Shown here: piece after piece, positions 2,600 through 14,836 of the stretch
Layout of the letters: each line of letters opens with the position of its first letter
Position numbering within the stretch: position 1 is the stretch's first letter
Source of the DNA: Thermoguttaceae bacterium
GTDB lineage: Bacteria > Planctomycetota > Planctomycetia > Pirellulales > Thermoguttaceae
Reading direction: 5' to 3'
Assembly: GCA_040766885.1 (NCBI GenBank)
Contig: JAXGPP010000008.1
Coordinates: forward strand, 373,659-437,658
DNA: 64,000 nt
The notes under the pieces: generated by a model
Databases searched by the model: none
Seen by the model: only the letters and a program-made list of their open reading frames with translations
Told to the model about the DNA's origin: nothing
Translations under genes and position numbers: made by a program

Positions 2600-2755
2600 T
2601 CCCACCGATGGTGAGGTTGGCCAACCGCCGAACAAGAACCAGTTGCCGCAACCCGCCCGCCATCTTTCACTAAACCTCCCCGCTTCACCCGCCCGCCAAA
2701 AACCAAATCGAACCCTTGAGCGCCGCCCTGAAACGGGTATCATTAACCTTTTCCC

Positions 2756-2828
2756 GCCCCCTTAGCTCAATCGGCAGAGCATCTGACTCTTAATCAGAGG
2801 GTTGATGGTTCGAGTCCATCAGGGGGCA
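2756..2828 (+). tRNA. tRNA-Lys(CTT), canonical
   Basis: Acceptor GCCCCCT/AGGGGGC. D-arm TAGCTCAATCGGCAGAGCA. Anticodon stem TCTGA/TCAGA with loop CTCTTAA (CTT). T-arm GATGGTTCGAGTCCATC. Discriminator A; no encoded CCA. Confidence 0.85.
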
Positions 2829-3396
2829 CTCAACACAAAGCCTTTCGCAGAAATGATTTGCGAATGGCTTTTTCTGTGCGCTTGCCAAGGGCGTTGGATT
2901 CGCCATCTAATGCAGCTTGCCGATTGCCTGTCCGGAAGAGGGGGGCGGCAACTACATCCCGCCTGACTCCCGACGACGAACCAGCGCGGCACCGCGCCCC
3001 CTGTCGGTCTCCCCCTGCTGGAACTCGTGTCGTTGGATGCTGATCTCCCGCAGCTGCCGAAACTTGGCCCATCGTCGGCGGCAGAACGGCCGGATGATTT
3101 TCGTGCACCGGTGGGAATACACACCCGTCGAAGCGCGTCCTTATAAGAGGTGCAGCCGCTTCTGCACAAAAGCCGACGAACCTTTTCGTAGTTCGCGGCG
3201 TCTATCAGTATCAGACGGGTGGAGAGAGTTTCAGGCGATCCAAGAGACTGCGAGAAGGGTGATGACTTCGTTCCGGTTGGGTATTACGAGCGAACCAGGA
3301 TGCAAAGGGCGATATGCCGATCAACCGGCGAATACCCTGCCCATGCATCCTTTGCGCTTGTGACGCTTGACCTTACGTCAGCGAGGGAAATAGAAA

Positions 3397-3428
3397 CCCG
3401 GCGTCACAAACGACGCCGGGTTTTTTGT
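3397..3428 (+). terminator. Intrinsic (rho-independent) terminator: hairpin followed by a T-run, separating the upstream non-coding stretch from the tRNA array.
   Basis: CCCGGCGTC-acaaa-GACGCCGGG forms a 9-bp GC stem, followed by TTTTTTGTT. Confidence 0.6.
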
Positions 3429-3429
3429 T

Positions 3430-3502
3430 GGGCTGGTAGCTGAGACGGTGTAGCGCCTGGCTGAAGACCAGGAGACGAGGGTTCGATTCACCTCCCGGCC
3501 CA
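3430..3502 (+). tRNA. tRNA-Phe(GAA)-like with a non-canonical D-loop and T-loop
   Basis: Acceptor GGGCTGG/CCGGCCC (one G-U). Anticodon stem CCTGG/CCAGG with loop CTGAAGA (GAA). T region GAGG-GTTCGATTCA-CCTC, i.e. an enlarged loop. Discriminator A. Confidence 0.55.
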
Positions 3503-3560
3503 CTGCGATCCGCCTGCGCGCCACCAGTAATTTGGCCACGTGGAATGTGCGCGCCGACAC

Positions 3561-3634
3561 GGCTCGTTCGTCTATCGGTACGAGGACGCCGGCCCTTCAA
3601 GCCGGAAAGGCGGGTTCAACTCCCGCACGAGCTA
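3561..3634 (+). tRNA. tRNA-Glu(TTC)
   Basis: Acceptor GGCTCGT/ACGAGCT. Anticodon stem CCGGC/GCCGG with loop CCTTCAA. T-arm GCGGG-TTCAACT-CCCGC. Confidence 0.65.
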
Positions 3635-3744
3635 CTGAGGACCGAACGGGGCAAAGGAAAGGGTATCGCCTGGTCGTTGGGAGCACGTAGACGCAACCTT
3701 CGAGACCTGCCATCCCGACTGGATTGGCAACGACTTTGGCACAT

Positions 3745-3816
3745 GGTAGTCGAGGGCCGGTTGCCCGAACACGGCTGATAACCGCGTAGTGCTGAGTTCG
3801 ACTCTCAGGGCTACCA
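3745..3816 (+). tRNA. tRNA-Ile(GAT)-like
   Basis: Acceptor GGTAGTC/GGCTACC (one G-U). D-arm GGGC-CGGTT-GCCC. Anticodon loop CTGATAA on a 4/5-bp stem. T-arm CTGAG-TTCGACT-CTCAG. Confidence 0.55.
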
Positions 3817-3881
3817 CTGGACGCGAGGAGCAATGGCATGACACATAGACGACTCAAACGCATACATCCGGCCCGAATTTC

Positions 3882-3953
3882 GGGGTCGTGGTGCAATGGC
3901 AGCACACCGGACTTTTAATCCGGCAGGTGAAGGTTCAAGTCCTTTCGGCCCCA
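3882..3953 (+). tRNA. tRNA-Lys(TTT)
   Basis: Acceptor GGGGTCG/CGGCCCC. D-arm TGGTGCAATGGCAGCACA. Anticodon stem CCGGA/TCCGG with loop CTTTTAA. T-arm GAAGG-TTCAAGT-CCTTT. Confidence 0.65.
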
Positions 3954-3963
3954 CTCATGAGCG

Positions 3964-4036
3964 TGCAGGCCAAAAGAAGAGCAGATTCGTTGGAATAGCG
4001 TGGCCGGAAGTTCGACTCTTCCCGCGCCTGCTGCCA
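3964..4036 (+). ncRNA. Aberrant tRNA-like element: acceptor plus an extended T-arm, with an encoded 3' CCA, but no recognisable D-arm or anticodon arm.
   Basis: T-arm GCCGGAAG-TTCGACT-CTTCCCGC. The 3' side GCCTGCT-G-CCA pairs with the 5' TGCAGGC. The 32-nt body does not fold into D and anticodon arms. Confidence 0.35.
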
Positions 4037-4052
4037 ACGACATGTACAGAAA

Positions 4053-4125
4053 GGGATCAAGGTGTTAGCGGCAGCATAGCGGACTCTTAATCCGCGAGGT
4101 GAGGGTTCAAGTCCCTCTGGTCCCA
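4053..4125 (+). tRNA. tRNA-Lys(CTT), second copy
   Basis: Acceptor GGGATCA/TGGTCCC. Anticodon stem GCGGA/TCCGC with loop CTCTTAA. T-arm GAGGG-TTCAAGT-CCCTC. Confidence 0.7.
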
Positions 4126-4136
4126 CTGAGAGAATC

Positions 4137-4208
4137 GCACTGGTCGTCCAGTGGCAAGGACACCGCACTCGTAACGCGGCAACGTGGGTTCGACTCCCAC
4201 CCGGTGCT
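4137..4208 (+). tRNA. tRNA-Thr(CGT)-like
   Basis: Acceptor GCACTGG/CCGGTGC (one G-U). T-arm GTGGG-TTCGACT-CCCAC. Anticodon loop CTCGTAA on a 4/5-bp stem CCGCA/CGCGG. Confidence 0.55.
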
Positions 4209-4240
4209 CTTGATCTTTGACAATCCGACACGCTTGTAGC

Positions 4241-4311
4241 GCGCCCATGATGTAGCGGCAGCCTGCCGCCTTGCCGAGGCGGAAGTGCGGGTTCAACTCC
4301 CGCTGGGCGCT
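4241..4311 (+). tRNA. tRNA-Gly(GCC)
   Basis: Acceptor GCGCCCA/TGGGCGC. Anticodon stem CCGCC/GGCGG with loop TTGCCGA. T-arm GCGGG-TTCAACT-CCCGC. Confidence 0.65.
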
Positions 4312-4320
4312 CTTGATCGA

Positions 4321-4414
4321 CAGGACGTAGGAAAGTCTGGTATTCCGCCGGGCACCGACGCGCAGCGTTGGTTGCGGGCGCACGAGATCGCCGGTTCAAA
4401 TCCGGCCGTCCTGA
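4321..4414 (+). tRNA. Class-II-length (94-nt) tRNA-like gene; anticodon arm not resolvable
   Basis: Perfect 7-bp acceptor CAGGACG/CGTCCTG. D-arm GGAA-AGTCTGGTA-TTCC. T-arm GCCGG-TTCAAAT-CCGGC. The internal 40 nt does not give a canonical anticodon stem-loop. Confidence 0.4.
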
Positions 4415-4421
4415 CTCTCGT

Positions 4422-4496
4422 TGCGGTGGGACCCGTGCTGGTACGGGTAGGCGGCTGTTAACCGCCCCGACGCAGGTTCGATTCCTGCCACCGCAG
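4422..4496 (+). tRNA. tRNA-Asn(GTT)
   Basis: Acceptor TGCGGTG/CACCGCA. D-arm CCCG-TGCTGGTA-CGGG. Anticodon stem GGCGG/CCGCC with loop CTGTTAA. T-arm GCAGG-TTCGATT-CCTGC. Confidence 0.7.
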
Positions 4497-4559
4497 CCTT
4501 TGGGAGAAAACAGAAGGTCAAGCCGGACCACCGCCGCGCGGCAGCACCCGCGATGCCAC

Positions 4560-4616
4560 TACGTTCGAAGCGGGACGAGCTTTGCGGTCTGGAGGGTTCG
4601 GCTCCCTCACCTTCCG
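4560..4616 (+). ncRNA. Truncated tRNA-like fragment (T-arm plus a short acceptor-like helix)
   Basis: T-arm GAGGG-TTCGGCT-CCCTC. The flanking AAGCGGG ... CCGCTT could pair as a minihelix. No D or anticodon arms. Confidence 0.3.
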
Positions 4617-4624
4617 CTTGCGAC

Positions 4625-4697
4625 GCGCCCTTGGCCGATCGGCACGAGGCATCAGCCTTCCACGCTGAACAGGCGGGTTCGACTCCCGCAGGGCGCT
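4625..4697 (+). tRNA. tRNA-Gly(TCC)
   Basis: Acceptor GCGCCCT/AGGGCGC. Anticodon stem TCAGC/GCTGA with loop CTTCCAC. T-arm GCGGG-TTCGACT-CCCGC. Confidence 0.65.
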
Positions 4698-4713
4698 CTC
4701 GCAGCGACAATGA

Positions 4714-4784
4714 TCGGGGATCGGCTAGCGGCAGGCCATCTGGCTTTGAACCAGAAAGTGGAGGTTCGACCCCTCCTCCCCGAA
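4714..4784 (+). tRNA. tRNA-Gln(TTG)
   Basis: Acceptor TCGGGGA/TCCCCGA. Anticodon stem TCTGG/CCAGA with loop CTTTGAA. T-arm GGAGG-TTCGACC-CCTCC. Confidence 0.65.
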
Positions 4785-4822
4785 CATGCAGGCGGACGAC
4801 TGTGTCTCGATAGGCAACACAA

Positions 4823-4893
4823 TGCGGGATCATCCAACGGCAGGATGCGACGCTCTGAACGTCGTCATGTTGGTTCGAGTCCAGCTCCCGCAG
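4823..4893 (+). tRNA. tRNA-Gln(CTG)
   Basis: Acceptor TGCGGGA/TCCCGCA. Anticodon stem CGACG/CGTCG with loop CTCTGAA. T-arm GTTGG-TTCGAGT-CCAGC. Confidence 0.65.
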
Positions 4894-5003
4894 CTTGGTA
4901 TGACGAACAACAAAGTCCGTGAGGGCCTGGAAATCGCGAAACCCGAATAATGACGCGCAACTCTGTTGTTCATTATTCGTCATCCGAATTCCTGCTTCCC
5001 CTC

Positions 5004-5074
5004 GGGGTCATGGTCCAACAGGACGACGCTGGCTCCGCAAGCCAGAGATCCGGGTGCGATTCCCGGTGACTCCA
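5004..5074 (+). tRNA. tRNA-Ala(CGC)-like; the T-loop reads TGCGATT rather than TTC...
   Basis: Acceptor GGGGTCA/TGACTCC (one G-U). Anticodon stem CTGGC/GCCAG with loop TCCGCAA. T-arm CCGGG-TGCGATT-CCCGG. Confidence 0.6.
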
Positions 5075-5085
5075 CTTGAAAGCGC

Positions 5086-5157
5086 AGCCCCGTGGTCCAA
5101 CGGCCACGACGCCTGGCCTACACCCAGGAAACGATGGTTCAACTCCATCCGGGGCTA
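5086..5157 (+). tRNA. tRNA-Val(TAC)
   Basis: Acceptor AGCCCCG/CGGGGCT. Anticodon stem CCTGG/CCAGG with loop CCTACAC. T-arm GATGG-TTCAACT-CCATC. Confidence 0.7.
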
Positions 5158-5253
5158 CTGTGGCAATGATGGAGTAGCAGCGCTGAATGATGAAACGTGA
5201 GCTCCCCCTGGGCACTTCATCATTCATCCTTCGATATTCATCATTCTGCGTCC

Positions 5254-5328
5254 GTCCTCGTGGAGCAGTCCGGAGTGCTCGCCTGCCTGTCACGCAGGAG
5301 ATCGCGGGTTCAAATCCCGTCGAGGGCG
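5254..5328 (+). tRNA. tRNA-Asp(GTC)
   Basis: Acceptor GTCCTCG/CGAGGGC (one G-U). D-arm GAGC-AGTCCGGAGT-GCTC. Anticodon stem CCTGC/GCAGG with loop CTGTCAC. T-arm GCGGG-TTCAAAT-CCCGT. Confidence 0.65.
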
Positions 5329-5342
5329 CTTTCGACAGTAGC

Positions 5343-5417
5343 GGCGCGGTACGCAAACCGGCAAAGCGGCGAAGCTCAAATCTTCGTGACCTGCGGGTTC
5401 GACTCCCGCCTGCGCCA
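5343..5417 (+). tRNA. tRNA with a Leu anticodon (CAA) but a type-I body (short variable loop)
   Basis: Acceptor GGCGCGG/CTGCGCC (one G-U). Anticodon stem CGAAG/CTTCG with loop CTCAAAT. Variable region only ~6 nt. T-arm GCGGG-TTCGACT-CCCGC. Confidence 0.55.
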
Positions 5418-5427
5418 CTGAGAACAT

Positions 5428-5511
5428 GCGTCGGCTGGGCATCGGCGTGCCCAACTGCCTGTAAAGCAGCCAGCCCGCAAGGCTATGCAGGTTCAACTCC
5501 TGCCCGGCGCA
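5428..5511 (+). tRNA. tRNA-Tyr(GTA), class II with a long variable arm
   Basis: Acceptor GCGTCGG/CCGGCGC (one G-U). Anticodon loop CTGTAAA. Long variable arm CCAGCCCGCAAGGCTAT. T-arm GCAGG-TTCAACT-CCTGC. Confidence 0.7.
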
Positions 5512-5521
5512 CTTTCAACAT

Positions 5522-5594
5522 GGCCCGTTCATCTATTGGCGAAGGACATCGGCCCCTCACGCCGGAAAGGCGGGTTCGATTCCCGCACGGGCTG
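5522..5594 (+). tRNA. tRNA-Glu(CTC)
   Basis: Acceptor GGCCCGT/ACGGGCT. Anticodon stem TCGGC/GCCGG with loop CCCTCAC. T-arm GCGGG-TTCGATT-CCCGC. Confidence 0.65.
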
Positions 5595-5602
5595 CTGAGC
5601 AT

Positions 5603-5684
5603 GACCAAGTGGCGCAACTGGAAGACGCGCGACGCTCAGAACGTCGTGCCGCAAGGCATGGGAGTTCGAATCTCCCCTTGGTCA
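5603..5684 (+). tRNA. tRNA-Leu(CAG), class II
   Basis: Acceptor GACCAAG/CTTGGTC. Anticodon stem CGACG/CGTCG with loop CTCAGAA. Long variable arm TGCCGCAAGGCAT. T-arm GGGAG-TTCGAAT-CTCCC. Confidence 0.7.
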
Positions 5685-5793
5685 CTCTTGGTTACGTGGT
5701 TGGTTGTGCGGCACTTCCCTGCGGTCTCGACCGCGAAGCCGGGCTCGTTACACTCGCCCTTGCCTCATTCTCGGCCCGGCAACCAAAAGGCAT

Positions 5794-5863
5794 TGCAGGC
5801 GCGGCAGGTGCCGAACTGGCTCCCATAAGGCCGGTGCGCCCGGTTCGATACCGGGGCCTGCAA
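5794..5863 (+). tRNA. tRNA with a CAT anticodon (Met or Ile2), with an unusual CC at positions 32-33
   Basis: Acceptor TGCAGGC/GCCTGCA. Anticodon stem TGGCT/GGCCG (two G-U) with loop CCCATAA. T-arm CCCGG-TTCGATA-CCGGG. Confidence 0.55.
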
Positions 5864-5879
5864 CTTTGAAAAACACGCT

Positions 5880-5948
5880 GCGGGTGGGCGCAGGCTCAAC
5901 CGGGCTTCATAAGCCTGGAATGTCGGGTGCAACTCCCGGACCCGCCAC
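5880..5948 (+). tRNA. Second CAT-anticodon tRNA-like gene (69 nt, degenerate)
   Basis: Acceptor TGCGGGT/ACCCGCC (one mismatch). Anticodon region GGC-TTCATAA-GCC. T-arm TCGGG-TGCAACT-CCCGG. Confidence 0.45.
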
Positions 5949-5953
5949 TTGCG

Positions 5954-6027
5954 ACCGGGTACGCGAATTGGCATAGCGACGAGGTCGAGGGCCTCGTGTC
6001 TGTGGGTTCGACTCCCACTCCGGTCAC
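5954..6027 (+). tRNA. tRNA with a Leu anticodon (GAG) but a type-I body
   Basis: Acceptor GACCGGG/TCCGGTC (one G-U). Anticodon stem (A)CGAGG/CCTCG(T) with loop TCGAGGG. 5-nt variable loop. T-arm GTGGG-TTCGACT-CCCAC. Confidence 0.55.
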
Positions 6028-6040
6028 TGACTGCACGACG

Positions 6041-6111
6041 GGCTCGTGGTCCAACGGGACGACACCAGCGCGGCATGCTGGAAACGCGGGTTCAACTCCC
6101 GCCGGGTCCAT
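6041..6111 (+). tRNA. tRNA-Ala(GGC)-like
   Basis: Acceptor GGGCTCG/CGGGTCC (two G-U). Anticodon stem CCAGC/GCTGG with loop GCGGCAT. T-arm GCGGG-TTCAACT-CCCGC. Confidence 0.55.
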
Positions 6112-6117
6112 TGGTTA

Positions 6118-6215
6118 AAAGCAATCAGCTTTCAGCTTTCAGCTTTCAGCTTTCAGTGATGAGTGTAAATCGGACGGCTGAAAGCTGACCGCTGAGAGCT
6201 GATAGCTGCCCATAT
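6118..6215. repeat. Heptamer tandem repeat (TCAGCTT)x4 followed by its imperfect inverted complement, which could form a long hairpin
   Basis: The sequence is cagctttcagctttcagctttcagctttcag ... ggctgaaagctgaccgctgagagctgatagctg. Confidence 0.7.
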
Positions 6216-6290
6216 GGTGTTCGTGGTGTAGCGGTCGCTGCATGGCTGGCTGTGAACCAGCAGGTGGGAGTTCGACTCTCCCCGGGCACC
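6216..6290 (+). tRNA. tRNA-His(GTG) with the G-1:C73 hallmark
   Basis: An extra 5' G(-1) at 6216 faces discriminator C6290. Acceptor GTGTTCG/CGGGCAC. Anticodon stem GCTGG/CCAGC with loop CTGTGAA. T-arm GGGAG-TTCGACT-CTCCC. Confidence 0.75.
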
Positions 6291-6311
6291 CCTTTCGGAA
6301 AGGAGATCACG

Positions 6312-6908
6312 ATGGTCGCCAAGGTACTTGAGCAACCGACGCTGGTGCTGAACCGCAACTGGCAGCCGGTCCACGTGGCAACCGTGGAGCGTGCGCTCGT
6401 GCTGCTCTGGAACGACTCGGCCCGCGTGGTCGATCCGGCCGACTTTCAGCTCTACGACTGGGCCGACTGGTCGAAGCTGCAGCCTGGCCATGGCGAGGCG
6501 TTCGTCCAGGCGGTCCGGTTCAAGCTGCGCGTGCCGGAGGTCGTTGTCCTCAGCGGCTACGACCGCCTGCCGGTGGCCCGCGTGACGTTCAGCCGGCGCA
6601 ACATCTTCAAGCGCGACCACTACACCTGCCAATACTGTAGCGCCCGACCGGGCAGCGAGGAATTGACCGTGGACCACGTGGTGCCGCGGGCGCAGGGTGG
6701 TGTATCAAGCTGGGAGAACTGCGTGCTGGCCTGCACGGCCTGCAACAAGCGGAAGGCCGACCGCACGCCGGAGCAGGCGGGCATGAAACTTCGCAAGAAG
6801 CCGGTCCGCCCGGAGTGGAAGCCGCTTTACGCGGACCGCGAGGTGCGGATCGCCAGTTGGTCGAAGTTCATCAGCGAAGCCTACTGGAACGTGGCACTGC
6901 GCGAGTAG
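6312..6908 (+). CDS. HNH endonuclease embedded in the tRNA array
   Basis: Strong RBS GGAAAGGAG 6 nt before the ATG at 6312. The HNH motif reads DHYTCQYCSARPG ... LTVDHVVPRAQGG ... NCVLACTACNKRKADRT (His-Asn-His with CxxC/CxxC zinc ligands). Confidence 0.85.
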   Translation: MVAKVLEQPTLVLNRNWQPVHVATVERALVLLWNDSARVVDPADFQLYDWADWSKLQPGHGEAFVQAVRFKLRVPEVVVLSGYDRLPVARVTFSRRNIFKRDHYTCQYCSARPGSEELTVDHVVPRAQGGVSSWENCVLACTACNKRKADRTPEQAGMKLRKKPVRPEWKPLYADREVRIASWSKFISEAYWNVALRE

Positions 6909-6916
6909 TGCCGTTA

Positions 6917-6948
6917 CGCCCGGTCCCCGATCACTGATCGGGGACCAC
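6917..6948 (+). terminator. Perfect 11-bp GC-rich hairpin immediately after the HNH stop; no T-run (likely a terminator or RNA-processing hairpin)
   Basis: GGTCCCCGATC-actg-GATCGGGGACC. Confidence 0.45.
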
Positions 6949-6951
6949 TAC

Positions 6952-7021
6952 AGGAGTGTCCTCCTGGGAGAGGAAGCGGTCTCCAAAGCCGCCCGACAGG
7001 GTTCGAATCCTTGCACTCCTG
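6952..7021 (+). tRNA. tRNA-Trp(CCA)
   Basis: Acceptor AGGAGTG/CACTCCT. Anticodon stem GCGGT/GCCGC (one G-U) with loop CTCCAAA. T-arm CAGGG-TTCGAAT-CCTTG. Confidence 0.65.
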
Positions 7022-7047
7022 CTTTTGGAAGATGAGAACGAAGAACT

Positions 7048-7119
7048 GCCGGCGTGGCCGAACAGCGAGGCGGCGGTCCTGTAAACCGCACAATGCTGGT
7101 GCAATTCCAGCCGTCGGCT
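7048..7119 (+). tRNA. tRNA-Thr(TGT); T-loop TGCAATT
   Basis: Acceptor GCCGGCG/CGTCGGC (one G-U). Anticodon stem GCGGT/ACCGC with loop CCTGTAA. T-arm GCTGG-TGCAATT-CCAGC. Confidence 0.65.
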
Positions 7120-7187
7120 CTGAAAAGAGCTCTCAGCAGTCCTGATTTGAGCTGATCGCTGAGGGTTGGCGGCTCACGGGCCGCGAT

Positions 7188-7259
7188 GTCCCGATAGTGT
7201 AGCGGATCGCATCGGAGCCTCCGAAGCTCCAGGCCCTGGTTCGAATCCAGGTCGGGATA
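7188..7259 (+). tRNA. tRNA-Arg(CCG)
   Basis: Acceptor GTCCCGA/TCGGGAT. D region TAGTGTAGCGGATCGCAT. Anticodon stem GGAGC/GCTCC with loop CTCCGAA. T-arm CCTGG-TTCGAAT-CCAGG. Confidence 0.7.
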
Positions 7260-7301
7260 CTCAAGAGGGTGAGACATCGTTGTGCATCCACTCTACTGCT
7301 T

Positions 7302-7374
7302 GTCCTCGGAGTGTGCCGGATCAGCACGCGACCGTGCGAAGGTCGTAGACCAGGTTCGACTCCTGGCGAGGACG
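7302..7374 (+). tRNA. tRNA-Arg with an unusual GCG anticodon
   Basis: Acceptor GTCCTCG/CGAGGAC. Anticodon stem CGACC/GGTCG with loop GTGCGAA. T-arm CCAGG-TTCGACT-CCTGG. Confidence 0.6.
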
Positions 7375-7422
7375 TTTTCGAAGCGTGCGGCCACCGCGAA
7401 ACGGCGGCGGTCGCACGCGAAG

Positions 7423-7494
7423 GGCGCTGGAGCCAGACGGCAAGGCAACCGCCTGCAAAGCGGTTTTACGCGGGTTCGACTCCCGCCTGCGCCT
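7423..7494 (+). tRNA. tRNA-Cys(GCA)
   Basis: Acceptor GGCGCTG/CTGCGCC (one mismatch). Anticodon stem ACCGC/GCGGT with loop CTGCAAA. T-arm GCGGG-TTCGACT-CCCGC. Confidence 0.65.
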
Positions 7495-8075
7495 CTGAGG
7501 CGGTCCGACTGCCGGTTCAGACTACATCCGTTGAAAAGGTGAACCGGTCCGAACCAATTCTCGTCGGCCTTCCTCTAACAAAGATGTCCAACTGCCTGCC
7601 GGGACTACATTCACTGTAACTGAACCGTCTCGGCGAAAACTTCGTTGGGCGTTGTGAGAACACATCGGGCGACTGCCCGGTTGGAGTACATATCGGTTCA
7701 AATCCGGTCGCCCCGACTGAACACTTGCGCGAGCGGGGCGTGGCTCAACGGTAGAGCACCTCTGGCCACCACCTCGTCGCCTATTGAATACAGACCGACT
7801 GCCGGTTGGAGTACATGCCTGAAGAGCCGGGGGTTGTGGGTTCGAATCCCACCAGCGCCACTCACTCACTTGAGCGCTGTAGCTCAATGGTAGAGCACCG
7901 TAAAGTTCTCTGACCAACCCCTCGTCGGTCCTTTTGAGACAACAGGAGACACGACCCGACTGACCGAGTGGAGTACATCCACCATCACCAAGCCTGGGAG
8001 GCGGGAGCTTCCCAATACGGACGGATCTGCGGATTCGACCGTACGGCGCCTCTGCTCATCCCTCGTCGGGTCATG
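7495..8075 (+). ncRNA. Cluster of 4-5 repeated tRNA-like modules sharing a bipartite conserved motif; candidate Y-RNA (YrlA-like) genes directly upstream of the Ro60/Rsr gene
   Basis: The motif GACTGCCGGTTGGAGTACAT and its variants occur at 7507, 7591, 7671, 7797 and 7958. Each is preceded 25-37 nt upstream by CTCGTCGG-like boxes at 7561, 7640 (variant), 7772, 7921 and 8063. Units C (about 7734-7860) and D (about 7872-8050) carry canonical D-arms (GCTCAACGGTAGAGC and GCTCAATGGTAGAGC). Unit C has a T-arm GTGGG-TTCGAAT-CCCAC and an acceptor-like pairing GGCGTGG/CAGCGCC around a ~78-nt insert in place of the anticodon arm. Unit B (about 7675-7726) is an acceptor (TCGGGCG/CGCCCCG) plus T-arm (ATCGG-TTCAAAT-CCGGT) mini-structure. 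GGTCCGA occurs twice in unit A. Confidence 0.4.
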
Positions 8076-8091
8076 CTATGTGAAGGAGGTC

Positions 8092-9723
8092 ATGATGGCC
8101 AACAAGAACCTGTTCGCCAGCCTGAAGAGCCGTTTCGTCCGGGCCGATGCTCGGAATGAGGCAGGAGGCCGCGCGTACGCGCTGGAGCCGAAGCACGCCC
8201 TGGCGCAGCTTGCCGCCACGGGCTGCTTCAACGGCGCCTACTACGCCGGCGCCGACGAGCAATTGGCCACGCTGAAGACGCTCGTCGAGCAGGTGGCCGA
8301 CAATGCCTTCCTCGCGAAGCTGGCGGTTTACAGCCGCCAGCGGGCGATGATGAAGGACATGCCGGTGGCCTTGCTGGTCGTGCTGTCGAAGCGCGATCCG
8401 GCCTTGTTCCGCAAGGCGTTCAATCGCGTGGTGGACAACGGCCGTACCCTGCGCACGATGGTGCAATTCGTCCGCTCGGGCCAGTTCGGCCGCAAGAGCC
8501 TGTCGTACGCCCTGCAGCGGGCTGTCCAGCGGTGGCTGAACTCGGCTTCGGTCGAGAAGCTGCTGTCGGCCTCGATCGGCAACGATCCGAGCCTGCGGGA
8601 CGTGCTGCGGCTGGCGCGGCCGACCCCGGCCGACAACGCTCGGCGTGCCCTGTTCGGCTGGCTGACCGATAAGCCGGTTGAGAAGTGGGCGCCGGCCACC
8701 GAGGCCGACCTGCCGGAGGAGGTCCGTGCGCTAGAGGCGTTCCGCCAGGCGGAGACGGCCGAGGTGCAACTCCAGGCTCTCGGCAAGCTGCGCGCTCGCT
8801 GGGACCTCTTGGCCGATGCGGCCAAGGGTCCGGCGGTTTGGGCGGAGGTTGCCCGGAAGATGGGGCCGCAGGCGCTGCGGATGAACCTCAACACGCTGGT
8901 CCGCCAGGGCGTCATCGGCCCGGATGCCAAGGGAGAGATGGTCGACTATGTGGCGGCGCGGCTGGCCGATGCCGAGGAGATCCGCCGCTCGCGGCAGTTC
9001 CCGTACCAGTTCCTCGCTGCATACCTTAACGTCGGTGACGGCGTTCCGCAGAAGATCAAGTCCGCCCTGCACAAGGCGGCGGAGATCGCCTGCGGCAACG
9101 TGCCGGAATTGCCGGGTCCGATCGTGATCGGACTCGACGTATCGGGCTCGATGAGCATGCCGGTTACGGGTAACCGCGGCCGGGGCGCGACGAGCAAGAT
9201 GCGCTGCGTGGACGTAGCGGCCCTGTTCGCCGCTGCCATCCTGCGCCGCAATCCGGAGAGCGTGGTCATCCCGTTCGACACGTCGGCTTACGAGGCCAAG
9301 GTTGATCCGAGCGACTCGGTCCTCAGCCTGGCCGATCGGCTGGCCCGTTTCGGTGGTGGCGGCACGAACTGCTCGCTGCCGTTGGCCGCGGCCAATGGCT
9401 GGTACGCAAGCCGGAAGTTCGCCGGCTGTGTGCTGGTGAGCGACAACGAGAGCTGGGTCGGCACAGGCCGCGGCGGCTCAACGGCCGTCATGACCGAGTG
9501 GCAGGCGTTCGTCCGCAACCAGGTGCGGTTGCACGGCCGGGGTTTTTCAGGCCCGAAGCTGGTCTCGATCGACCTCCAGCCGTACACCACGACCCAGGCC
9601 CCGGAGCGCAGCGACATCCTGAACGTCGGCGGCTTCAGTGACGCCGTGTTCAGCGTCGTGGCTGCCTTCCTGGCCGGCGACGGCGGCCGGTTCGTCGCCG
9701 AGGTCGAAGCGGTCGAGCTGTAG
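8092..9723 (+). CDS. rsr: Ro60/Rsr orthologue: TROVE-domain ribonucleoprotein with a C-terminal von Willebrand A (MIDAS) domain
   Basis: Strong RBS AAGGAGG at 8083-8089; the ORF opens with a GTG at 8080 and in-frame ATGs at 8092 and 8095. The N-terminal ~350 aa has a Ro60-like pattern ([22 protein letters not shown] ... [33 protein letters not shown]). The C-terminus is vWA-like with [14 protein letters not shown] ... GGGT ... SDNESW. Confidence 0.7.
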
Positions 9724-9744
9724 ACCGGCAGAACCTGATGCAAG

Positions 9745-9778
9745 TCAGCCAGCGCCCATTCGGGGCGCTGGCTGACAC
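9745..9778. terminator. 14-bp perfect hairpin between the convergent rsr and glycoside hydrolase genes (bidirectional terminator-like)
   Basis: GTCAGCCAGCGCCC-attcg-GGGCGCTGGCTGAC. Confidence 0.5.
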
Positions 9779-9803
9779 ATCAGCCGCAGTAGAGAGACCA
9801 CGT

Positions 9804-11816
9804 TCACTCGACCGGCACGACTTCAAAAACCGCTGTCTCAAACGGCGCCAGTTCGACCCTCGCCGACTCTCCGGCTCGAACGGTCATCTCCGACCGCGGT
9901 GGACTGCCGCTCCACGGCCAGACCAGCCGGTACTCGCGCGCGGCGCCCTCGGGTAGCTCCAGCGCACCTCCGATGTCGAGCGAGAAATTTGCCGGCGACG
10001 CGGACGGGTTGCGTAGCATGAGCGTGCCCAGACGCGGCGACCAGGCCGCAAATCCGTAGACTTGCCCCTCCGCCGGATCGCCTCCGATCCAGTGCGCGTC
10101 CACGAGCACGTCGGCATTCTTCCGCAACCAGGCCGCCCCCTCGGCCAGCGAGTCCCACATCTCGGGCGTCAGCTTCTGCGGCGTGATGTATAGCTCCTGG
10201 AGCTGCGTGCCGGTGGCGAAGAACGAGCGGACTTCGTCGTTCCAGTCTTTCAGCTCGGTGCTCATCCGGGCGGCGGGGCCCAGTTGCGCGTGGACGATCC
10301 CCTGCGTCATCAGCGAGTTGACCGGATAGAGCGGCGCCCGCCGGACGATGCCCTTGTAGGTGTGCATGTCGCGGTAGGTGATCCACTGCTGCCGCATCGT
10401 GCCCGGTCCGAAGAAGTCCATATCGCTGCCGTTGCGCCACACCGAGTCGCCAAAGAACAGCCAGTAGGGCGACGGCCACGTACCGGTAGTGATGCTCAGA
10501 TAGAGATCGGGGCGCAGGCCGCGCAGCTCGCGGCAAAGTCGCAGCAGTGCGTCGACGTCGGCGGCAAATGACTCACCCGCACCGGTGGAAGAAAGCCCCT
10601 GGGCAATGCCGTCGAATTTGAAGTAGTTTACGCCGTAACGCTCGACCATCTCACGGCAAACCTCACGGAAACGGCCGTAGTATTTCGGGCCGGCCAGCGC
10701 AAATCCGCGGGCGTTGGTTTCGAATCCCTGCGTCTTGCCGTACTCCATCCGTTCGGCCTTCGCCCCACCGTACCCTCCCCACGGCGAGAGCCACACACCG
10801 ACGGCCGTCTGGTGCCGTGCGGCGGCTGCGGAGAGCGGCGAAAAACCGTGCGGGAAACCGTCATGGAACCGCCACAACGTGCGGTTGTCGTCCCAGCCGT
10901 CGTCGAAGACGGCCGAATCGAGCTTGCCTCCCCGTCGATCGACAAACTCGCGCCCGAAGGCCTCGATCACCTCGATGCACTGGGCTTCGTTCATCTTTCG
11001 ATCGCCCCAGGCGATGTCGTACCACGAGTTGTAGTGCAAGAACGGCGCGTAGGGCCGCGGCCGCTCGCGCTCCAGGTAGTAAAGAAACCCGCGGCGCAAC
11101 TGGCCCGGCGGTACAACTCCCACGACGGTGCTCCGTACACACTCTCGCGGCTCGTCGGCGTTGGGGTATGTGCCCACGCTGCAAACGATCCGCCCTTCGT
11201 CGACGCGATTGGAAGCCATTGGGTGCTCGCAAGCCAGGAATAAGTTGCCGCAGACCACCGGCGAGCCGTCCACTTCGCCCGCCACGCGGGCCTCGGTCGC
11301 CGGCAGATCAATAAGCAACAGGCGTTCGACTTTGGCCGCTTCCGGCGAAGGCAGCAGCGTGACTTCCTGGCGGATGTAGTTCGAATCGTCGCGAAGCACT
11401 GCCTTCCATCGCAACCGAACCGCGTCGCTGCCGAGACTCAGGTTCGCTATTGCGCTGAACCCGCCTGAGCGTTCCGCGGCCGAGACGGCATCGGCACGGG
11501 AAGCGATGCGTTCGATCCGCAGTCCGTCGACTACACGGGCGGCGGAGAGCTTCAACGTCGCACCGTCCGCCGGCCCGGAATCGTTCGCGCCCGCGCGAAG
11601 TACGCTTCCGGTGGCCAGGTCGGCCACTTCCATCAGCGTCAGCCGCCCGTCGGCCAGGCTCCAAGTGGCCGCGAGCAACTGGTTTCTCATCACGAGCCGT
11701 CCCTCCTTCAGCTCGGCGGTCGCGGCGCCGGGCCTCGCACCCGGCAGTTCCAGAGCGCCGGCGGCCGTGGCGCCAAAGATCGTGACTACGCTTACGCCAA
11801 TGAGCAGGCTTCGCAT
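9804..11816 (-). CDS. Secreted glycoside-hydrolase-like protein (TIM-barrel, GH27/GH36-like); family uncertain
   Basis: ORF of 670 aa. N-terminal signal peptide MRSLLIGVSVVTIFGATAAGA. Internal NYFKFDGI and WLSPWGGYG motifs are reminiscent of the melibiase-type catalytic region. Confidence 0.55.
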   Translation of the reverse strand: MRSLLIGVSVVTIFGATAAGALELPGARPGAATAELKEGRLVMRNQLLAATWSLADGRLTLMEVADLATGSVLRAGANDSGPADGATLKLSAARVVDGLRIERIASRADAVSAAERSGGFSAIANLSLGSDAVRLRWKAVLRDDSNYIRQEVTLLPSPEAAKVERLLLIDLPATEARVAGEVDGSPVVCGNLFLACEHPMASNRVDEGRIVCSVGTYPNADEPRECVRSTVVGVVPPGQLRRGFLYYLERERPRPYAPFLHYNSWYDIAWGDRKMNEAQCIEVIEAFGREFVDRRGGKLDSAVFDDGWDDNRTLWRFHDGFPHGFSPLSAAAARHQTAVGVWLSPWGGYGGAKAERMEYGKTQGFETNARGFALAGPKYYGRFREVCREMVERYGVNYFKFDGIAQGLSSTGAGESFAADVDALLRLCRELRGLRPDLYLSITTGTWPSPYWLFFGDSVWRNGSDMDFFGPGTMRQQWITYRDMHTYKGIVRRAPLYPVNSLMTQGIVHAQLGPAARMSTELKDWNDEVRSFFATGTQLQELYITPQKLTPEMWDSLAEGAAWLRKNADVLVDAHWIGGDPAEGQVYGFAAWSPRLGTLMLRNPSASPANFSLDIGGALELPEGAAREYRLVWPWSGSPPRSEMTVRAGESARVELAPFETAVFEVVPVE

Positions 11817-12007
11817 GGCTGTGCACCTCGCTTGCAGGACAGGCCTTCGCCCCGGTTCACGCCGGCAGTCGCCCGGCGCGTCCTATCCTGGCAGGCGGTC
11901 GAGCACAATTCAAGCGGGCACGACCGAACGAATTGCCGCCACCGGTGCGGTGTGTTACCGTGGTGACGCGCGTTATCGCCGAATTCTGACCGAGAGGAGC
12001 CCTCGCC

Positions 12008-14836
12008 ATGTCTATCCGACGCGGCATCGTGATTGCTGTCCTGGCCGGCATCTGCGGCTTTCCCGCGCCGTTGTCTTCGGCAGCTTCGGCTGAACCGCCG
12101 GCCGCGGGCCGTATCGACTCTCTGGAATCCATTCCCGACGCCCGTTGGCAGCTTGAGGGCTTCGTCGGCCGCCGCGTCCAGGCCAATGTCGACCACTGGC
12201 TGATCCCCGCGCCCGCCAACAATCCGGGCTTGCTCGAGATGTTCGCCCGCCGCGACAGCGGCACTCCGCCCGACCTGGTGCCCTGGGCCGGTGAATTCGT
12301 GGGCAAATATCTCATTTCGGGCGCGCAGGCCATGCGCATGTCGGACAGCCCGGAGCTCAGAGCCACGCTTGAGCAAGTCGTCGGGCGGCTACTCTCGCTG
12401 CAGGACGCCGACGGCTATCTGGGGCCCTGGCCCAAGGACCAGCGGCTCCGCGGCCAATGGGACCTGTGGGGCCACTACCACATCATGCTCGGGCTGCTCC
12501 TCTGGCACGACGAGACGGGCGACAAGAAGGCCGAAGAGGCGGCACGGCGCATCGCTGATCTCGTTTGTAGCACCTGCTCCGGCGGCGACTTCCGCGTCAT
12601 CGATGCCGGGTCGCACGAAATGAACATGAGCATCCTGCACGGCCTCACCATCCTCTACCGGCGAACCGGCGAAGACCGCTACCTGGCCATGGCCCGCGAG
12701 GTGCTCAAGGATATCGAGCGGGCCGGCGACTATCACCGGGTCGGGCTGGAGGGACGCGAGTTCTTCCGCTCGCCGCGGCCGCGCTGGGAGAGCCTGCACT
12801 GCCTGCAAGGTCTGGCCGAGATGCATCGCATCACGGGCGACCCGGCGTTCCGCCAGTCGTTTCTCCACCATTGGGCGAGTATTCGCCGCTTCGATCTCCG
12901 CAATACGGGCGGATTCTCTTCCGGCGAACAGGCCACCGGCAACCCGTTCGTCAACGACGCCATCGAAACCTGTTGCGTCATCGCCTGGCAGGCAGTGATG
13001 ATCGATGCCCTGGCACTGACTGGCCAATCCTTGATCGCCGACGACCTTGAACGGGCCACGCTCAATGCGGCGCTCGGAGCCCAGCACCCATCGGGCGCTT
13101 GGTGCACCTACAATTCGCCCATGGCCGGACAGCGAATCCCCTCGCACATCGACATCAGCTTCCAGGTTCGACCCGGCACGCCACACCTCAATTGCTGCTC
13201 CGTCAATGGCCCGCGCGGCTACGGCTCGATTAGCGACTGGGGCCTGATGCGAACGGCTGACGGCCTGGCACTCAACTATTATGGTCCGGGCACGATCCGG
13301 GCCAACCTCGCCGATGGCACGCCGCTCGCCATTCGCCAACAGACCGATTACCCCATTAGCGGCCGCGTGATCGTGAGCTTCGAGATGGCGGCGGCCAGCC
13401 CGTTTGAGCTCGCATTGCGGATCCCGGCCTGGTCGCGCACCACCGGCGTTCGCATCAACGGCGAGCTTGTATCAGGCGTCGTGCCGGGCGAATACCTGAA
13501 GCTCGCACGAACGTGGCAGCCGAGCGACGAGATCACGCTCGATCTCGACATGCAGACCCGGTACGAGCCGGGTGATCGGGAGCAGTTCGGCAAGGCTTCT
13601 TTCTATCGCGGCCCGATCCTGCTGGCTGCCGACAGTCGCATCGAACAACAAGACGGCCTCACGAATGTCGATGAACTGCCCGTGATCGACGTCAATCAAA
13701 TCGACAAGACTCGGCTCGTGGAGCCACCGGTCGGCGGCGACTCTCCATGGGTCACGGTCGACGTCCCGGCATCCGGCGGCACGATCCGGCTGATCGATTT
13801 CGCCAGCGCCGGAAAGACGACACTGGAAGGCCAGCCGCAGAGCCGATACGCAACCTGGCTGCCGGCCGCCAACATGCGTCCGCCGCTTCCCGTCGCCTGG
13901 ATACCCGCCGACGGTGCGGCAGTCGGCACGGGCGACATCCTTTTTGCGTGGCGACAGCCTGCGCACGACGACACGGCCCGGCGCCATGCGGTGGTAATCG
14001 CCGATTCGCCCGCGTTCGACCATGAGCTGTTGCGATATGGCGACGAGGGGGGCTCGTCGCTGGTGCTGCCGGTCAACGCGGCGACGGCGCTCAAGCCGCA
14101 TGCCGTGTATTACTGGAAGATCGTCGCCCGCAATGAGCATGGGCGGGCAGAGAGCATCGCGCCGCACAAGCGATTTCGGATCGATCCCTCGGCTCCACCT
14201 TCGCCCACGAACTGGCCGTACGGCCAGCGCAAAGAAGACTCGATGCTGGTCGCAGCGACGCTCGCCGGAGATGTCGAGCCGTCGTACGGCACGCTCGAAG
14301 ACGCCCGCGGCTGGAAGCCGGCGACGGGACCAGACGGCGCCCCCGCCAGCGCCATCGAGCTTGATGGTCAGAGCGGCATGGTGCGGTACAGGCTGTCGGC
14401 TTTTCCCGACAAAGACTACACCGTGGCAATCCGCGTCTGCGTCAGTCCCGCCCAGAGCGATCGCTTCGGCCAGATCTTCAGCGGTTGGTCCCGCGGCATG
14501 GATGATCCGCTTCGGGTATGTCTTGCCGGTGGCAAGCTGGCAGCGCGAATCGAGGCCGGCCGATTCTTCAGCACCCCGACCGTTCCGCTGGAGATCGGCC
14601 GGTGGCACCATGTGGCTGCCGTCAAGAATGGCGACAAGCTCATCCTCTATCTCGACGGCCAGCCGGCCGGCACGGCCGCCGTGCCGACGCGGATCTCGAC
14701 CGCGACGGAAGTCGTTGCCATCGGCGGCAACCCGCTTTACACGGGCGGACCGGAGTATCTCGCCGGCCGCTTTACCGACTTGCGCCTGTTTGCCCGCGCC
14801 TTGACCGATGACGAAGTAAGGAAGCTCGCCGAATAA
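12008..14836 (+). CDS. GH127-family (DUF1680, beta-L-arabinofuranosidase-like) glycoside hydrolase with a C-terminal LamG/concanavalin-like domain
   Basis: ORF of 942 aa with a signal peptide. It has the E-x-C (ETCCV) and adjacent Cys-Cys (NCCSVNG) features typical of the GH127 Cys-Glu zinc site, plus WDLWGHYH. The C-terminal LamG signature reads GNPLYTGGPEYLAGRFTDLRLFARALTDDEV. Confidence 0.6.
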   Translation: MSIRRGIVIAVLAGICGFPAPLSSAASAEPPAAGRIDSLESIPDARWQLEGFVGRRVQANVDHWLIPAPANNPGLLEMFARRDSGTPPDLVPWAGEFVGKYLISGAQAMRMSDSPELRATLEQVVGRLLSLQDADGYLGPWPKDQRLRGQWDLWGHYHIMLGLLLWHDETGDKKAEEAARRIADLVCSTCSGGDFRVIDAGSHEMNMSILHGLTILYRRTGEDRYLAMAREVLKDIERAGDYHRVGLEGREFFRSPRPRWESLHCLQGLAEMHRITGDPAFRQSFLHHWASIRRFDLRNTGGFSSGEQATGNPFVNDAIETCCVIAWQAVMIDALALTGQSLIADDLERATLNAALGAQHPSGAWCTYNSPMAGQRIPSHIDISFQVRPGTPHLNCCSVNGPRGYGSISDWGLMRTADGLALNYYGPGTIRANLADGTPLAIRQQTDYPISGRVIVSFEMAAASPFELALRIPAWSRTTGVRINGELVSGVVPGEYLKLARTWQPSDEITLDLDMQTRYEPGDREQFGKASFYRGPILLAADSRIEQQDGLTNVDELPVIDVNQIDKTRLVEPPVGGDSPWVTVDVPASGGTIRLIDFASAGKTTLEGQPQSRYATWLPAANMRPPLPVAWIPADGAAVGTGDILFAWRQPAHDDTARRHAVVIADSPAFDHELLRYGDEGGSSLVLPVNAATALKPHAVYYWKIVARNEHGRAESIAPHKRFRIDPSAPPSPTNWPYGQRKEDSMLVAATLAGDVEPSYGTLEDARGWKPATGPDGAPASAIELDGQSGMVRYRLSAFPDKDYTVAIRVCVSPAQSDRFGQIFSGWSRGMDDPLRVCLAGGKLAARIEAGRFFSTPTVPLEIGRWHHVAAVKNGDKLILYLDGQPAGTAAVPTRISTATEVVAIGGNPLYTGGPEYLAGRFTDLRLFARALTDDEVRKLAE

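Follow-up and report, generated by a model that had tools for sequence, protein, structure and literature searches.

Between the end of a long array of tRNA genes and the start of rsr, the gene of a Ro60 ortholog, the genome of a Thermoguttaceae bacterium (Planctomycetota; assembly GCA_040766885.1, contig JAXGPP010000008.1) carries 600 bases, and the question raised by this locus is what they encode. The locus lies in a stretch of 64,000 nucleotides (nt)—the window, in which all coordinates below are positions—and the cassette of tRNA array, interval and rsr is on the + strand. To our knowledge, bacterial Ro60–Y RNA particles have been studied only in three bacteria and one phage; the roles suggested for tRNA array units are translational back-up and anti-defence. 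An initial annotation of the window proposed that the interval holds tandem genes resembling YrlA-type Y RNAs, at the end of the tRNA array and upstream of rsr. This is borne out: Rfam YrlA matches positions 7792–7934 and 7666–7786, and the interval holds five structured, covarying modules with homology to Y RNAs of the YrlA type, encoded on the rsr strand and in continuity with the tRNA array. We think it probable that positions 7497–8072 hold the genes of five bacterial Y RNAs in tandem, non-coding RNAs that partner the Ro60 ortholog Rsr.

Five units upstream of rsr

The rsr gene (8095–9723, +; 542 codons) encodes a TROVE ring and a vWA domain (Pfam TROVE and vWA_Ro60). Its product aligns over residues 14–529 with Deinococcus radiodurans Rsr (PDB 2NVO; E 8e-25), a full-length homology, and can be classed by sequence as a genuine Ro60 ortholog; the NCBIfam Rsr model gives it 103.6 bits, which does not reach the equivalog cut-off of 900. 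It is this Rsr with which the five Y RNAs are presumed to associate.

Five copies of a motif had been reported upstream of rsr, and a search with the gapped pattern ACTG-N6-14-GA[CG]TACAT recovers them at 7508, 7591, 7672, 7798 and 7959, all on the + strand. The pattern occurs nowhere else on either strand of the 64 kilobases (kb); 0.02 copies are expected, and none of 100 shuffles reached five. The exact 20-mer of the initial annotation is found, within three mismatches, only at 7797, because the copies differ by insertions and deletions. The boxes that accompany the motif, whose coordinates had been right to within 1 nt, are CTCGTCGG at 7560, 7921 and 8062, with the variants CTTCGTTGG at 7640 and CTCGTCGC at 7772; the CTCGTCGG 8-mer is unspecific by itself, with 19 copies in the window. 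The tRNA-like elements are also where they had been placed—the D-arm-like GCTCAAyGGTAGAGC at about 7743 and about 7882, and the T-arm GTGGGTTCGAATCCCAC-CAGCGCC-A at 7836–7860—as are two copies of GGTCCGA (7502 and 7546), both in the first of the units defined below, where the second copy is part of the 3′ strand of stem 2.

How these elements combine into RNAs depends on the register in which motifs and boxes pair. The initial annotation paired each box with the motif downstream of it, and arrived at tRNA-like genes of canonical order (7734–7860 and 7872–8050) in which an insert of 75–130 nt carrying the motif replaces the anticodon arm. Such a helix can be drawn: every CGUCG core is complementary to every CGAC(U)G core, which allows a bulged helix of 5–6 base pairs. 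The outer positions decide against it. Among 283 units from the window and 80 related loci, a motif and the box that follows it form 7.4 contiguous base pairs, with 3.27 of the 4 variable outer positions paired, versus 4.5 contiguous pairs and 1.49 of 4 outer positions—about chance—for a box and the next motif. The partner of each motif is the next box 3′ of it and not the preceding one. The Rfam YrlA alignments set this same register, with the motif as 5′ strand and the next box as 3′ strand of the terminal stem, and our own covariance model (R1, below) also aligns every unit in it. The bipartite motif does form a helix, then, but with the other partner, and the unit boundaries move to about 7497–7575, 7583–7653, 7667–7782, 7793–7930 and 7953–8072. 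The two tRNAs with inserts are chimeras, each joining the D-arm half of a Y RNA to the T-arm half of its downstream neighbour, because the acceptor strands that they join (GCGGGGC/CAGCGCC) are not complementary, and the strands within one Y RNA (CGCCCC/GGGGCG and CAGCGC/GCGCUG) pair perfectly. We regard the parse with inserts as refuted and its genes as hardly credible.

Two compensatory changes within the window itself agree with the five-unit register: unit 2 has CAAC/GUUG versus CGAC/GUCG in the others, and units 1 and 2 have GGAC/GUCU versus GGAG/CUCU in units 3–5. Stems 1 and 2, with the 5′ and 3′ ends paired and an internal loop between the stems, are present in all five units, which lie 23–598 nt upstream of rsr. 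In this common platform the ends form stem 1, which has the core C(G/A)AC / GU(C/U)G and freely variable outer pairs; the conserved internal loop is asymmetric, UG(C/A)C on the 5′ side against a C/U-rich CYUC on the 3′ side; and stem 2 ends in GGA(G/C) / (C/G)UCU, with an invariant UACAU at the junction.

Unit 1 (7497–7575, +), which starts 2 nt after tRNA-Cys, and unit 2 (7583–7653, +) are short YrlB-like hairpins, the first of them without a tRNA-like domain. Stem 1 of unit 1 is GAGG.GG.CCGAC / GUCGGCC..CCUC, followed by the internal loop UGCC, stem 2 (CGGUUCAGAC / GUCCGAACCG) and the junction UACAU; in unit 2, stem 1 is GAUGUCCAAC / GUUGGGCGUU, in which the core has changed from CGAC/GUCG to CAAC/GUUG on both sides, and stem 2 is GCCGGGAC / GUCUCGGC. 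For both, the minimum free energy (MFE) structure is the Y fold (−27.9 kcal/mol, z −2.2, and −25.2 kcal/mol, z −2.8). R1 finds them with 34.6 bits (E 1e-6) and 44.8 bits (E 5e-9), although neither was in its seed, and Rfam YrlB matches them weakly, at 7497–7575 (17.5 bits) and 7581–7653 (18.6 bits), with E-values of 0.9–1.8. In most loci an orthologous first unit comes after tRNA-Cys.

Units 3 and 4 are YrlA-like. Unit 3 (7667–7782, +; Rfam YrlA 35.2 bits, E 8e-6, at 7666–7786; R1 88.6 bits) has stem 1 at 7668–7673 / 7776–7781 and stem 2 at 7679–7686 / 7760–7767, and between them a T-arm (7692–7708), an acceptor-like hairpin CGCCCC/GGGGCG (7709–7740) and a D-arm (7743–7757); the support for its structure is the covariation in relatives. 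Unit 4 (7793–7930, +; Rfam YrlA 54.5 bits, E 2e-11, at 7792–7934; R1 137.6 bits) has stem 1 GACCGAC / GUCGGUC, stem 2 GGUUGGAG / CUCUGACC and a variable arm; its T-arm GUGGG-UUCGAAU-CCCAC (7836–7852) and acceptor-like hairpin CAGCGC/GCGCUG (7853–7880) are followed by a UA resembling U8-A9 and by the D-arm GCUC-AAUGGUA-GAGC (7883–7897). In both cases the tRNA-like parts are permuted. The search for a parental tRNA of these halves gave generic similarity of 68–79% only and no clear parent.

Unit 5 (7953–8072, +), the rsr-proximal unit, is different again. Its stem 1 (GACCCGAC / GUCGGGUC), stem 2 (GUGGAG / CUCUGC) and internal loop are those of the common platform, and its apical module is a three-way junction with two hairpins, without T-arm or D-arm. 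The Y fold is its MFE structure (−54.4 kcal/mol, z −3.65; none of 200 shuffles was as good), and R1 finds it from outside the seed with 40.3 bits (E 6e-8). Rfam has no match to unit 5 even at E≤10, and its class occupies the corresponding place in 28 or more further loci.

The Y fold is thus the MFE structure of units 1, 2 and 5 and lies within 1.8–2.7 kcal/mol of it for units 3 and 4 (1.8 kcal/mol for unit 4). At its gathering thresholds Rfam reports nothing in the interval between tRNA-Cys and rsr, and YrlA appears only in E-value mode. A tRNA-like domain, with T and D stem-loops and an acceptor-like stem-loop between them, is present in units 3 and 4 and absent from units 1, 2 and 5, which are therefore not YrlA.

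Recurrence and covariation in related loci

Three checks named by the initial annotation—Rfam together with a de novo covariance model, a search of other planctomycete genomes, and covariation across homologous loci—all gave positive results: YrlA is significant though below threshold, R1 finds all five units, units recur upstream of rsr in nearly every related locus, and the helices covary. Relatives were obtained as 80 genomic loci fetched by way of Rsr homologs of 68–89% identity. Such homologs are abundant in Planctomycetota (Thermoguttaceae, Pirellulales, Gemmataceae and others). Nearly all of the 80 loci have 2–9 copies of the motif, and these are on the rsr strand in the 2 kb or so before rsr, with hardly any elsewhere; the counts for single loci are approximate, and the regular-expression unit finder detects fewer units than the covariance model does.

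To build R1, 60 YrlA-like units from relatives were aligned with MAFFT. The RNAalifold consensus of these 60 comprises both stems, 1 and 2, as well as T-arm and acceptor-like hairpin, with compensatory changes in 18 of 25 pairs. R1 gives 321 matches at E≤1e-4 in 81 sources, none of them on the strand opposite rsr and nearly every one before it, and in the 39 sources with long flanks all 192 matches precede rsr on its own strand; the few matches that are not Y units are weak ones inside tRNA arrays. When the pairs are counted in the 150 best R1 matches, 95.7% of cells are paired, versus 36–50% when the partners are slid; cells with double changes number 644 versus 44–109, and the covariation score is 0.509 versus at most 0.089. 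None of 500 shuffles reached the observed values of pairing or covariation, and compensatory changes are present in 20 of 25 pairs and in all four helices. Within the acceptor-like hairpin, all four pairs show double changes and 93% of cells are paired. Covariation in stems 1 and 2 extends to the short class (alignment A5) and to the rsr-proximal one (A4).

These data bear on whether the T-arm and D-arm elements could be decayed tRNA genes whose adjacent halves mimic YrlA. Dimeric tRNAs do give false YrlA matches, as Chen et al. warned (PMC4201824); the region abuts 28 tRNA genes, and the R1 matches in the window other than the five units, all of at most 28 bits, fall on adjacent tRNAs of the array, where they are this same artefact. 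The YrlA-like units score 88–138 bits with the same model, however, and no tRNA is found in 7496–8094 by ARAGORN or by Rfam tRNA at E≤10. The acceptor strands pair across a loop of 14–20 nt in a hairpin that covaries, the flanking stems 1 and 2 also covary and are common to units without any tRNA-like part, and the elements are conserved across loci in which Rsr is only 68–87% identical. Decay of tRNA genes is in our judgement a very improbable account.

A second concern is that the motif might be a generic intergenic repeat, of the repetitive extragenic palindromic (REP) kind, unrelated to rsr. Metagenome contigs were scanned with a 17-base version of the motif, which yielded 120 loci, and these were then filtered with R1: 25 have an R1 match, and the other 95 are chance motif matches without the fold. 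That most 17-base hits are due to chance, and that the box 8-mer is common in the window, would suit a generic repeat. The full motif is nevertheless unique to the interval in the 64 kb, and the structure-confirmed copies in the 39 long loci all stand just upstream of rsr on its strand. Among the 25 R1-matched metagenome loci, 14 contain rsr, directly downstream and on the same strand in 13 of them, and 7 have less than 710 nt of downstream DNA and are uninformative. We give the generic repeat practically no weight. The link of Y units to rsr is strong but not absolute: four loci (L120, L130, L174 and L187) may hold orphan Y RNA genes, or their rsr may lie further away. One of them, L174:1489–1598, scores 72 bits with no nearby tRNAs and no rsr.

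Beyond the common platform the units fall into classes. Class (a), with a small hairpin only, comprises units 1 and 2; its first member in a locus usually has a stem of 11–12 base pairs starting TGAC right after tRNA-Cys. Class (b), the permuted tRNA mimic of T-arm, acceptor-like hairpin and D-arm, comprises units 3 and 4. Variants of it make up class (c), in which the T-arm and acceptor-like hairpin are kept and the D-arm is absent or replaced by a longer unrelated hairpin (alignment A2; for example L001:6668–6818, L002:6724–6872, L012:603–734 and L019:6782–6911). Unit 5 belongs to the rsr-proximal class (d), which has the conserved junction GCC-[GGGAAGC-GGGA-GCUUCCC]-[hairpin]-GGC. Class (e) is longer, about 170–205 nt (most 175–185), and has the platform with stems 1 and 2 and UACAU but lacks a T-arm; in most cases it stands second or third among the units (L016:6147–6330, L011:2611–2790, L034:6112–6294 and 16 more loci). 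Only classes (a), (b) and (d) occur in the window; of the D-arm variants, the 'CACUCGAC' class, which stands between units 4 and 5 in the closest relatives, is missing from it. Both the rsr-proximal class and the long one are candidates for new families of Y RNA.

Going by homology to the Y RNAs that have been studied (PMC4201824, PMC12135203), stem 1 and the internal-loop platform would be the Rsr-binding site, and the platform would correspond to GNCGAAN0-1G of YrlA and to GGUCCGA of vertebrate Y RNAs. The same homology suggests that the differing apical modules tether or gate Rsr for different partners, for example PNPase or tRNA-recognising enzymes, and the tRNA mimics may, as studied systems would have it, be handled by tRNA enzymes. 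Several Y RNA classes for one Rsr make a natural system for the idea that different Y RNAs recruit different partners.

The tRNA array and the transcription unit

The tRNA array (3430–7495, +) contains 27 tRNA genes called by ARAGORN and one found only by Rfam (5004–5074), at about 6.6 per kb. It satisfies the definition of a tRNA array unit (at least 20 tRNA genes at no fewer than 2 per kb; Tran et al. 2016) and, with an HNH gene embedded at 6312–6908, also that of the mycobacterial type. Its last gene, directly 5′ of unit 1, is tRNA-Cys(GCA) (7423–7495, +; ARAGORN). The HNH endonuclease gene (6312–6908, +; Pfam HNH and HNH_5), whose HNH domain is of the IscB/Cas9 type, lies between tRNA-His and tRNA-Trp and is kept at this position in 24 other loci (L002–L077) with 63–84% identity. 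Its conservation is about that of Rsr, which suggests a settled component of the cassette and not a roaming homing endonuclease.

The tRNA array, Y RNAs and rsr most likely form one transcript, because unit 1 starts 2 nt after tRNA-Cys, the spacers between units are short (about 7–22 nt), unit 5 is near the ribosome-binding site of rsr, and no terminator is detected; the scan predicts none on the + strand from 4865 to 9526, and thus none between array and rsr. Excision of the Y RNAs would then fall to the tRNA-processing machinery, as it does for the YrlA/YrlB precursor of Mycobacterium smegmatis. At the other end, 21 nt 3′ of the rsr stop codon, the sequence has a perfect G+C-rich hairpin of 14 base pairs without a T tract (9744–9776, +), which is likely to be the 3′ end of the transcription unit; the scan did not flag it because it lacks the T run.

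The same layout raises the possibility of a cis-acting role, for all the units or for unit 5 at the least, as a leader of the rsr mRNA and not as free RNAs: by binding the Y-like stem beside its own ribosome-binding site, Rsr would autoregulate its translation or mRNA stability. The 3′ strand of unit 5 ends at 8072, about 10 nt 5′ of the Shine-Dalgarno sequence GAAGGAGG at 8082–8089; in 27 of 38 loci the last unit, whatever its class, ends 15–26 nt 5′ of the rsr start codon, and there is no promoter-sized gap between the units and rsr. Such proximity is equally expected, however, if the cut that forms the 3′ end of the Y RNA also sets where the mRNA begins, and the upstream Y RNAs of M. smegmatis are excised and accumulate as stable Rsr-bound RNAs (PMC4201824). 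Units 1–4 are too distant from the ribosome-binding site to occlude it, and the fold of 7950–8078 (unit 5 and 6 nt more, ending before the Shine-Dalgarno sequence) leaves its 3′ flank unpaired. A cis-acting leader seems unlikely to us as the explanation of the locus; it is compatible with the five units being Y RNAs, and one may speculate that unit 5 doubles as an autoregulatory leader.

Several observations weigh against the interpretation of the units as co-transcribed YrlA-type partners of Rsr. Co-transcription rests on short spacers and a crude terminator scan. Units 4 and 3 score below the YrlA gathering score of 69, and units 1 and 2 far below the YrlB gathering score of 97. The planctomycete motif, CGACUG (NNC(G/A)ACUG over all units found), differs from the GNCGAAN0-1G, or CGAA(N)G, of YrlA; it sits where the YrlA motif sits, with a C in place of the second A. 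Taken singly, unit 3 has a different fold as its MFE structure (z −1.0), and its consensus fold is 2.7 kcal/mol higher. The alignment used for the pair counts was fitted to R1 and leans towards that model, though the independent MAFFT/RNAalifold result agrees with it. The four loci named above, L120, L130, L174 and L187, have structure-confirmed Y-like units and 1.9–11.6 kb of downstream DNA without rsr. Finally, a tRNA array is absent from 13 of the 55 loci whose upstream DNA is long enough, with Y units and rsr present, which makes the tRNA linkage frequent and not obligatory. We continue to favour five Y RNAs. If the RNAs are not expressed, or not bound by Rsr, the finding shrinks to an annotation note.

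The 55 loci, each with at least 3 kb of upstream sequence, also describe the cassette: 33 have 5 or more (up to 42) tRNA genes on the same strand, in the recurring order ..His-[HNH]-Trp-Thr-Arg(n)-Cys, and in most loci the first Y unit begins 0–10 nt after tRNA-Cys. In a Pirellula-like group (L075:662–1090, L077:2268–2546, L081:4342–4612 and L130:5641–5949, the last on the − strand) 2–3 Y units lie in mid-array, right after tRNA-Arg(TCT) or tRNA-Ser(GGA) and before HNH, with more units just before rsr. Some metagenome-assembled genomes (MAGs) have two cassettes: L002 and L004 are on one contig, and L021 and L055 in one MAG. In L033 a second Y-like set (4209–4711; 126 bits at 4577–4711) follows about 1.3 kb downstream of rsr, and may precede a second rsr beyond the contig end.

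The same tRNA–Y–rsr cassette is present in L081 (IMGVR_UViG_3300049594_000559; Rsr 69% identical), where the region 3′ of it (7744–12321) holds genes for a PTH2 peptidyl-tRNA hydrolase, a homing-endonuclease-repeat protein, two ParB-like proteins and a large serine recombinase; these neighbours, the ParB-like genes and recombinase among them, indicate that this cassette sits on a mobile element. A broader proposal, which we put forward tentatively, is that the Y RNAs of Planctomycetota are an integral part of a tRNA array unit that moves horizontally (array, HNH gene, 2–8 Y RNAs of at least four classes, and rsr), are co-transcribed with the array and processed by tRNA enzymes, and that Rsr–Y ribonucleoproteins survey, repair or degrade the array's tRNAs, possibly in the setting of tRNA-targeting stress or attack by anti-phage nucleases. 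The action of these particles on array tRNAs is speculative, as is the idea that YrlA-type Y RNAs arose at the junction of two adjacent tRNA genes, with which permuted mimics inside arrays would fit. If the mobile-unit proposal is true, the unexplained tRNA array units would be tied to Ro60 RNA quality control. In any case the cassette joins the questions of Ro60–Y RNA and of tRNA arrays, placing up to eight Y RNAs between about 30–40 tRNA genes and rsr, and offers a testable link of Ro60 with tRNA metabolism.

Two contigs from IMG/VR, L082 and L090 (275 and 160 kb), are jumbo-phage-like; they encode an Rsr homolog of about 41–43% identity with 25–26 tRNA genes downstream, and weak-to-moderate Y-like matches lie between the tRNAs (for example L082:9780–9916, 43.9 bits).

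Some features of the array and its surroundings are recorded here. Seven ARAGORN tRNAs are below Rfam gathering (3745–3817, 4321–4415, 4422–4498, 5428–5512, 5794–5864, 6952–7022 and 7301–7375), including a 95-nt 'tRNA-Gly(ACC)', and relatives repeatedly show long ACC, CCG and TCG calls of this kind; some tRNAs of the array are probably atypical or decayed, which has also been reported of other tRNA arrays. The spacer at 6122–6215, between tRNA-Ala and tRNA-His, has 4–5 tandem copies of the heptamer CAGCTTT and then the imperfect complement GCTGAAAGCTGA, which together give a long AGCT-rich hairpin; a similar AGCT-rich spacer lies 3′ of tRNA-Thr(TGT) at 7121–7187. A tRNA-Lys gene (2756–2829, +; ARAGORN) stands apart from the array that starts at 3430, and may be a separate unit, because the sole sigma-70-like site within 2400–10000 is just 5′ of it (2716–2743, +) and a terminator-like hairpin with a T run is 3′ of it (2844–2864, +).

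Just 5′ of the cassette is a gene for a sigma-54 enhancer-binding protein (659–2599, +), identified by its GAF, AAA+ and HTH_8 domains. RtcR controls the rsr operon of Salmonella, and a role of this activator was considered by analogy; two weak matches were found in the 80 loci, and the neighbourhood is treated as coincidence. The window's flanking genes (the sigma-54 activator, GH127 and others) are not kept beside the cassette in related loci. Away from the cassette, Rfam places an Acido-Lenti-1 small RNA at 21159–21205 (−), with 42 bits against a gathering score of 37, and a near-threshold copy of it (36.3 bits) is at L033:4933–4979 (−).

Comparison with known systems

Parts of this arrangement, which the initial annotation took to be undescribed, have been published. 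Several Y RNAs upstream of rsr come from one precursor in M. smegmatis and D. radiodurans, and the YrlA and YrlB of M. smegmatis, processed from such a precursor, are bound by Rsr (PMC4201824); Yrl1 and Yrl2 of phage phiLo, also upstream of Ro60, bind it in electrophoretic mobility shift assays and in cryo-electron microscopy (PMC12135203); and a TROVE gene accompanies 20 of 29 archaeal tRNA gene clusters (PMC6333295). HNH genes in tRNA arrays are described by Morgado & Vicente 2018 (PMC5966550) and Yano et al. 2026 (PMC12803027), and planctomycete tRNA arrays are mentioned once, in passing, by Tran et al. 2016 (PMC4758250). What stands of the claim of novelty is that a literature search, short of many subscription papers, found no description of planctomycete Y RNAs or of Y-RNA arrays fused to tRNA arrays; the size, diversity and tRNA-array fusion of the planctomycete Y RNA arrays look new.

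YrlA (RF02553; Salmonella, M. smegmatis and mycobacteriophages; PMC4201824) is the closest likeness of units 3 and 4. Both have an end-to-end stem with an internal loop that bears a conserved 5′ motif, in variant form in the planctomycete units, and both have the permuted T-arm, acceptor-like stem-loop and D-arm, to which the full Rfam model aligns; both lie on the rsr strand within 4 kb of rsr, and several copies per locus are known for YrlA, those of M. smegmatis being upstream of rsr. Unlike YrlA, the planctomycete units have an invariant UACAU and a GGAG/CUCU stem 2, and some of their subclasses replace or lack the D-arm. Binding by Rsr, tRNA modifications and recognition as a substrate by RNase P and other tRNA enzymes also belong to the definition of YrlA. 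The Rfam YrlA model matches all of 15 planctomycete loci, with 31–56 bits, and none reaches the gathering score, so that standard annotation misses the whole group and the Rfam threshold, in effect, a whole phylum. Judged by their sequences, units 3 and 4 are best described as divergent new members of YrlA.

YrlB (RF02565, Salmonella), the YrlB of M. smegmatis, and Yrl1 and Yrl2 of phiLo are short RNAs with the Ro-binding platform and no full tRNA-like domain, encoded beside YrlA and rsr. A 5′ segment, ..GA-UGC-..GGGA(C/U)UACAU.., is common to the Salmonella YrlB consensus and to units 1 and 2, and the low scores of these units stand against a Rfam model built from enterobacterial sequences, whose apical loops are unrelated to those of the two units. 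They can be called YrlB-like, since they have the Y platform and lack a tRNA mimic, but membership of YrlB cannot be demonstrated for them. The class of unit 5 appears to correspond to no described family.

Metazoan Y RNAs, and Yrn1 and Yrn2 of D. radiodurans, have the Ro60 site in the terminal stem, with a conserved GGUCCGA-like element in the 5′ strand, and their variable upper module binds effectors, tethering PNPase in D. radiodurans. The five units resemble them in the terminal stem formed by the 5′ and 3′ ends and in the variable upper module; in sequence, only the short motif is homologous. Where the vertebrate helix bulges a C, the units have an asymmetric internal loop after a perfect stem of 5–12 base pairs.

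The tRNA array units of the literature (PMC4758250, PMC5966550, PMC12803027) and the array of the window are alike in having at least 20 tRNAs at no fewer than 2 per kb and one conserved HNH gene, and array units and planctomycete cassette alike vary in their flanking genes among genomes and occur on mobile elements and phages. The published papers on tRNA arrays and TROVE clusters describe no Y RNAs, whereas the planctomycete cassette includes 2–8 Y RNA genes, placed at the 3′ end of the array or, in some lineages, in mid-array, and linking the array to rsr.

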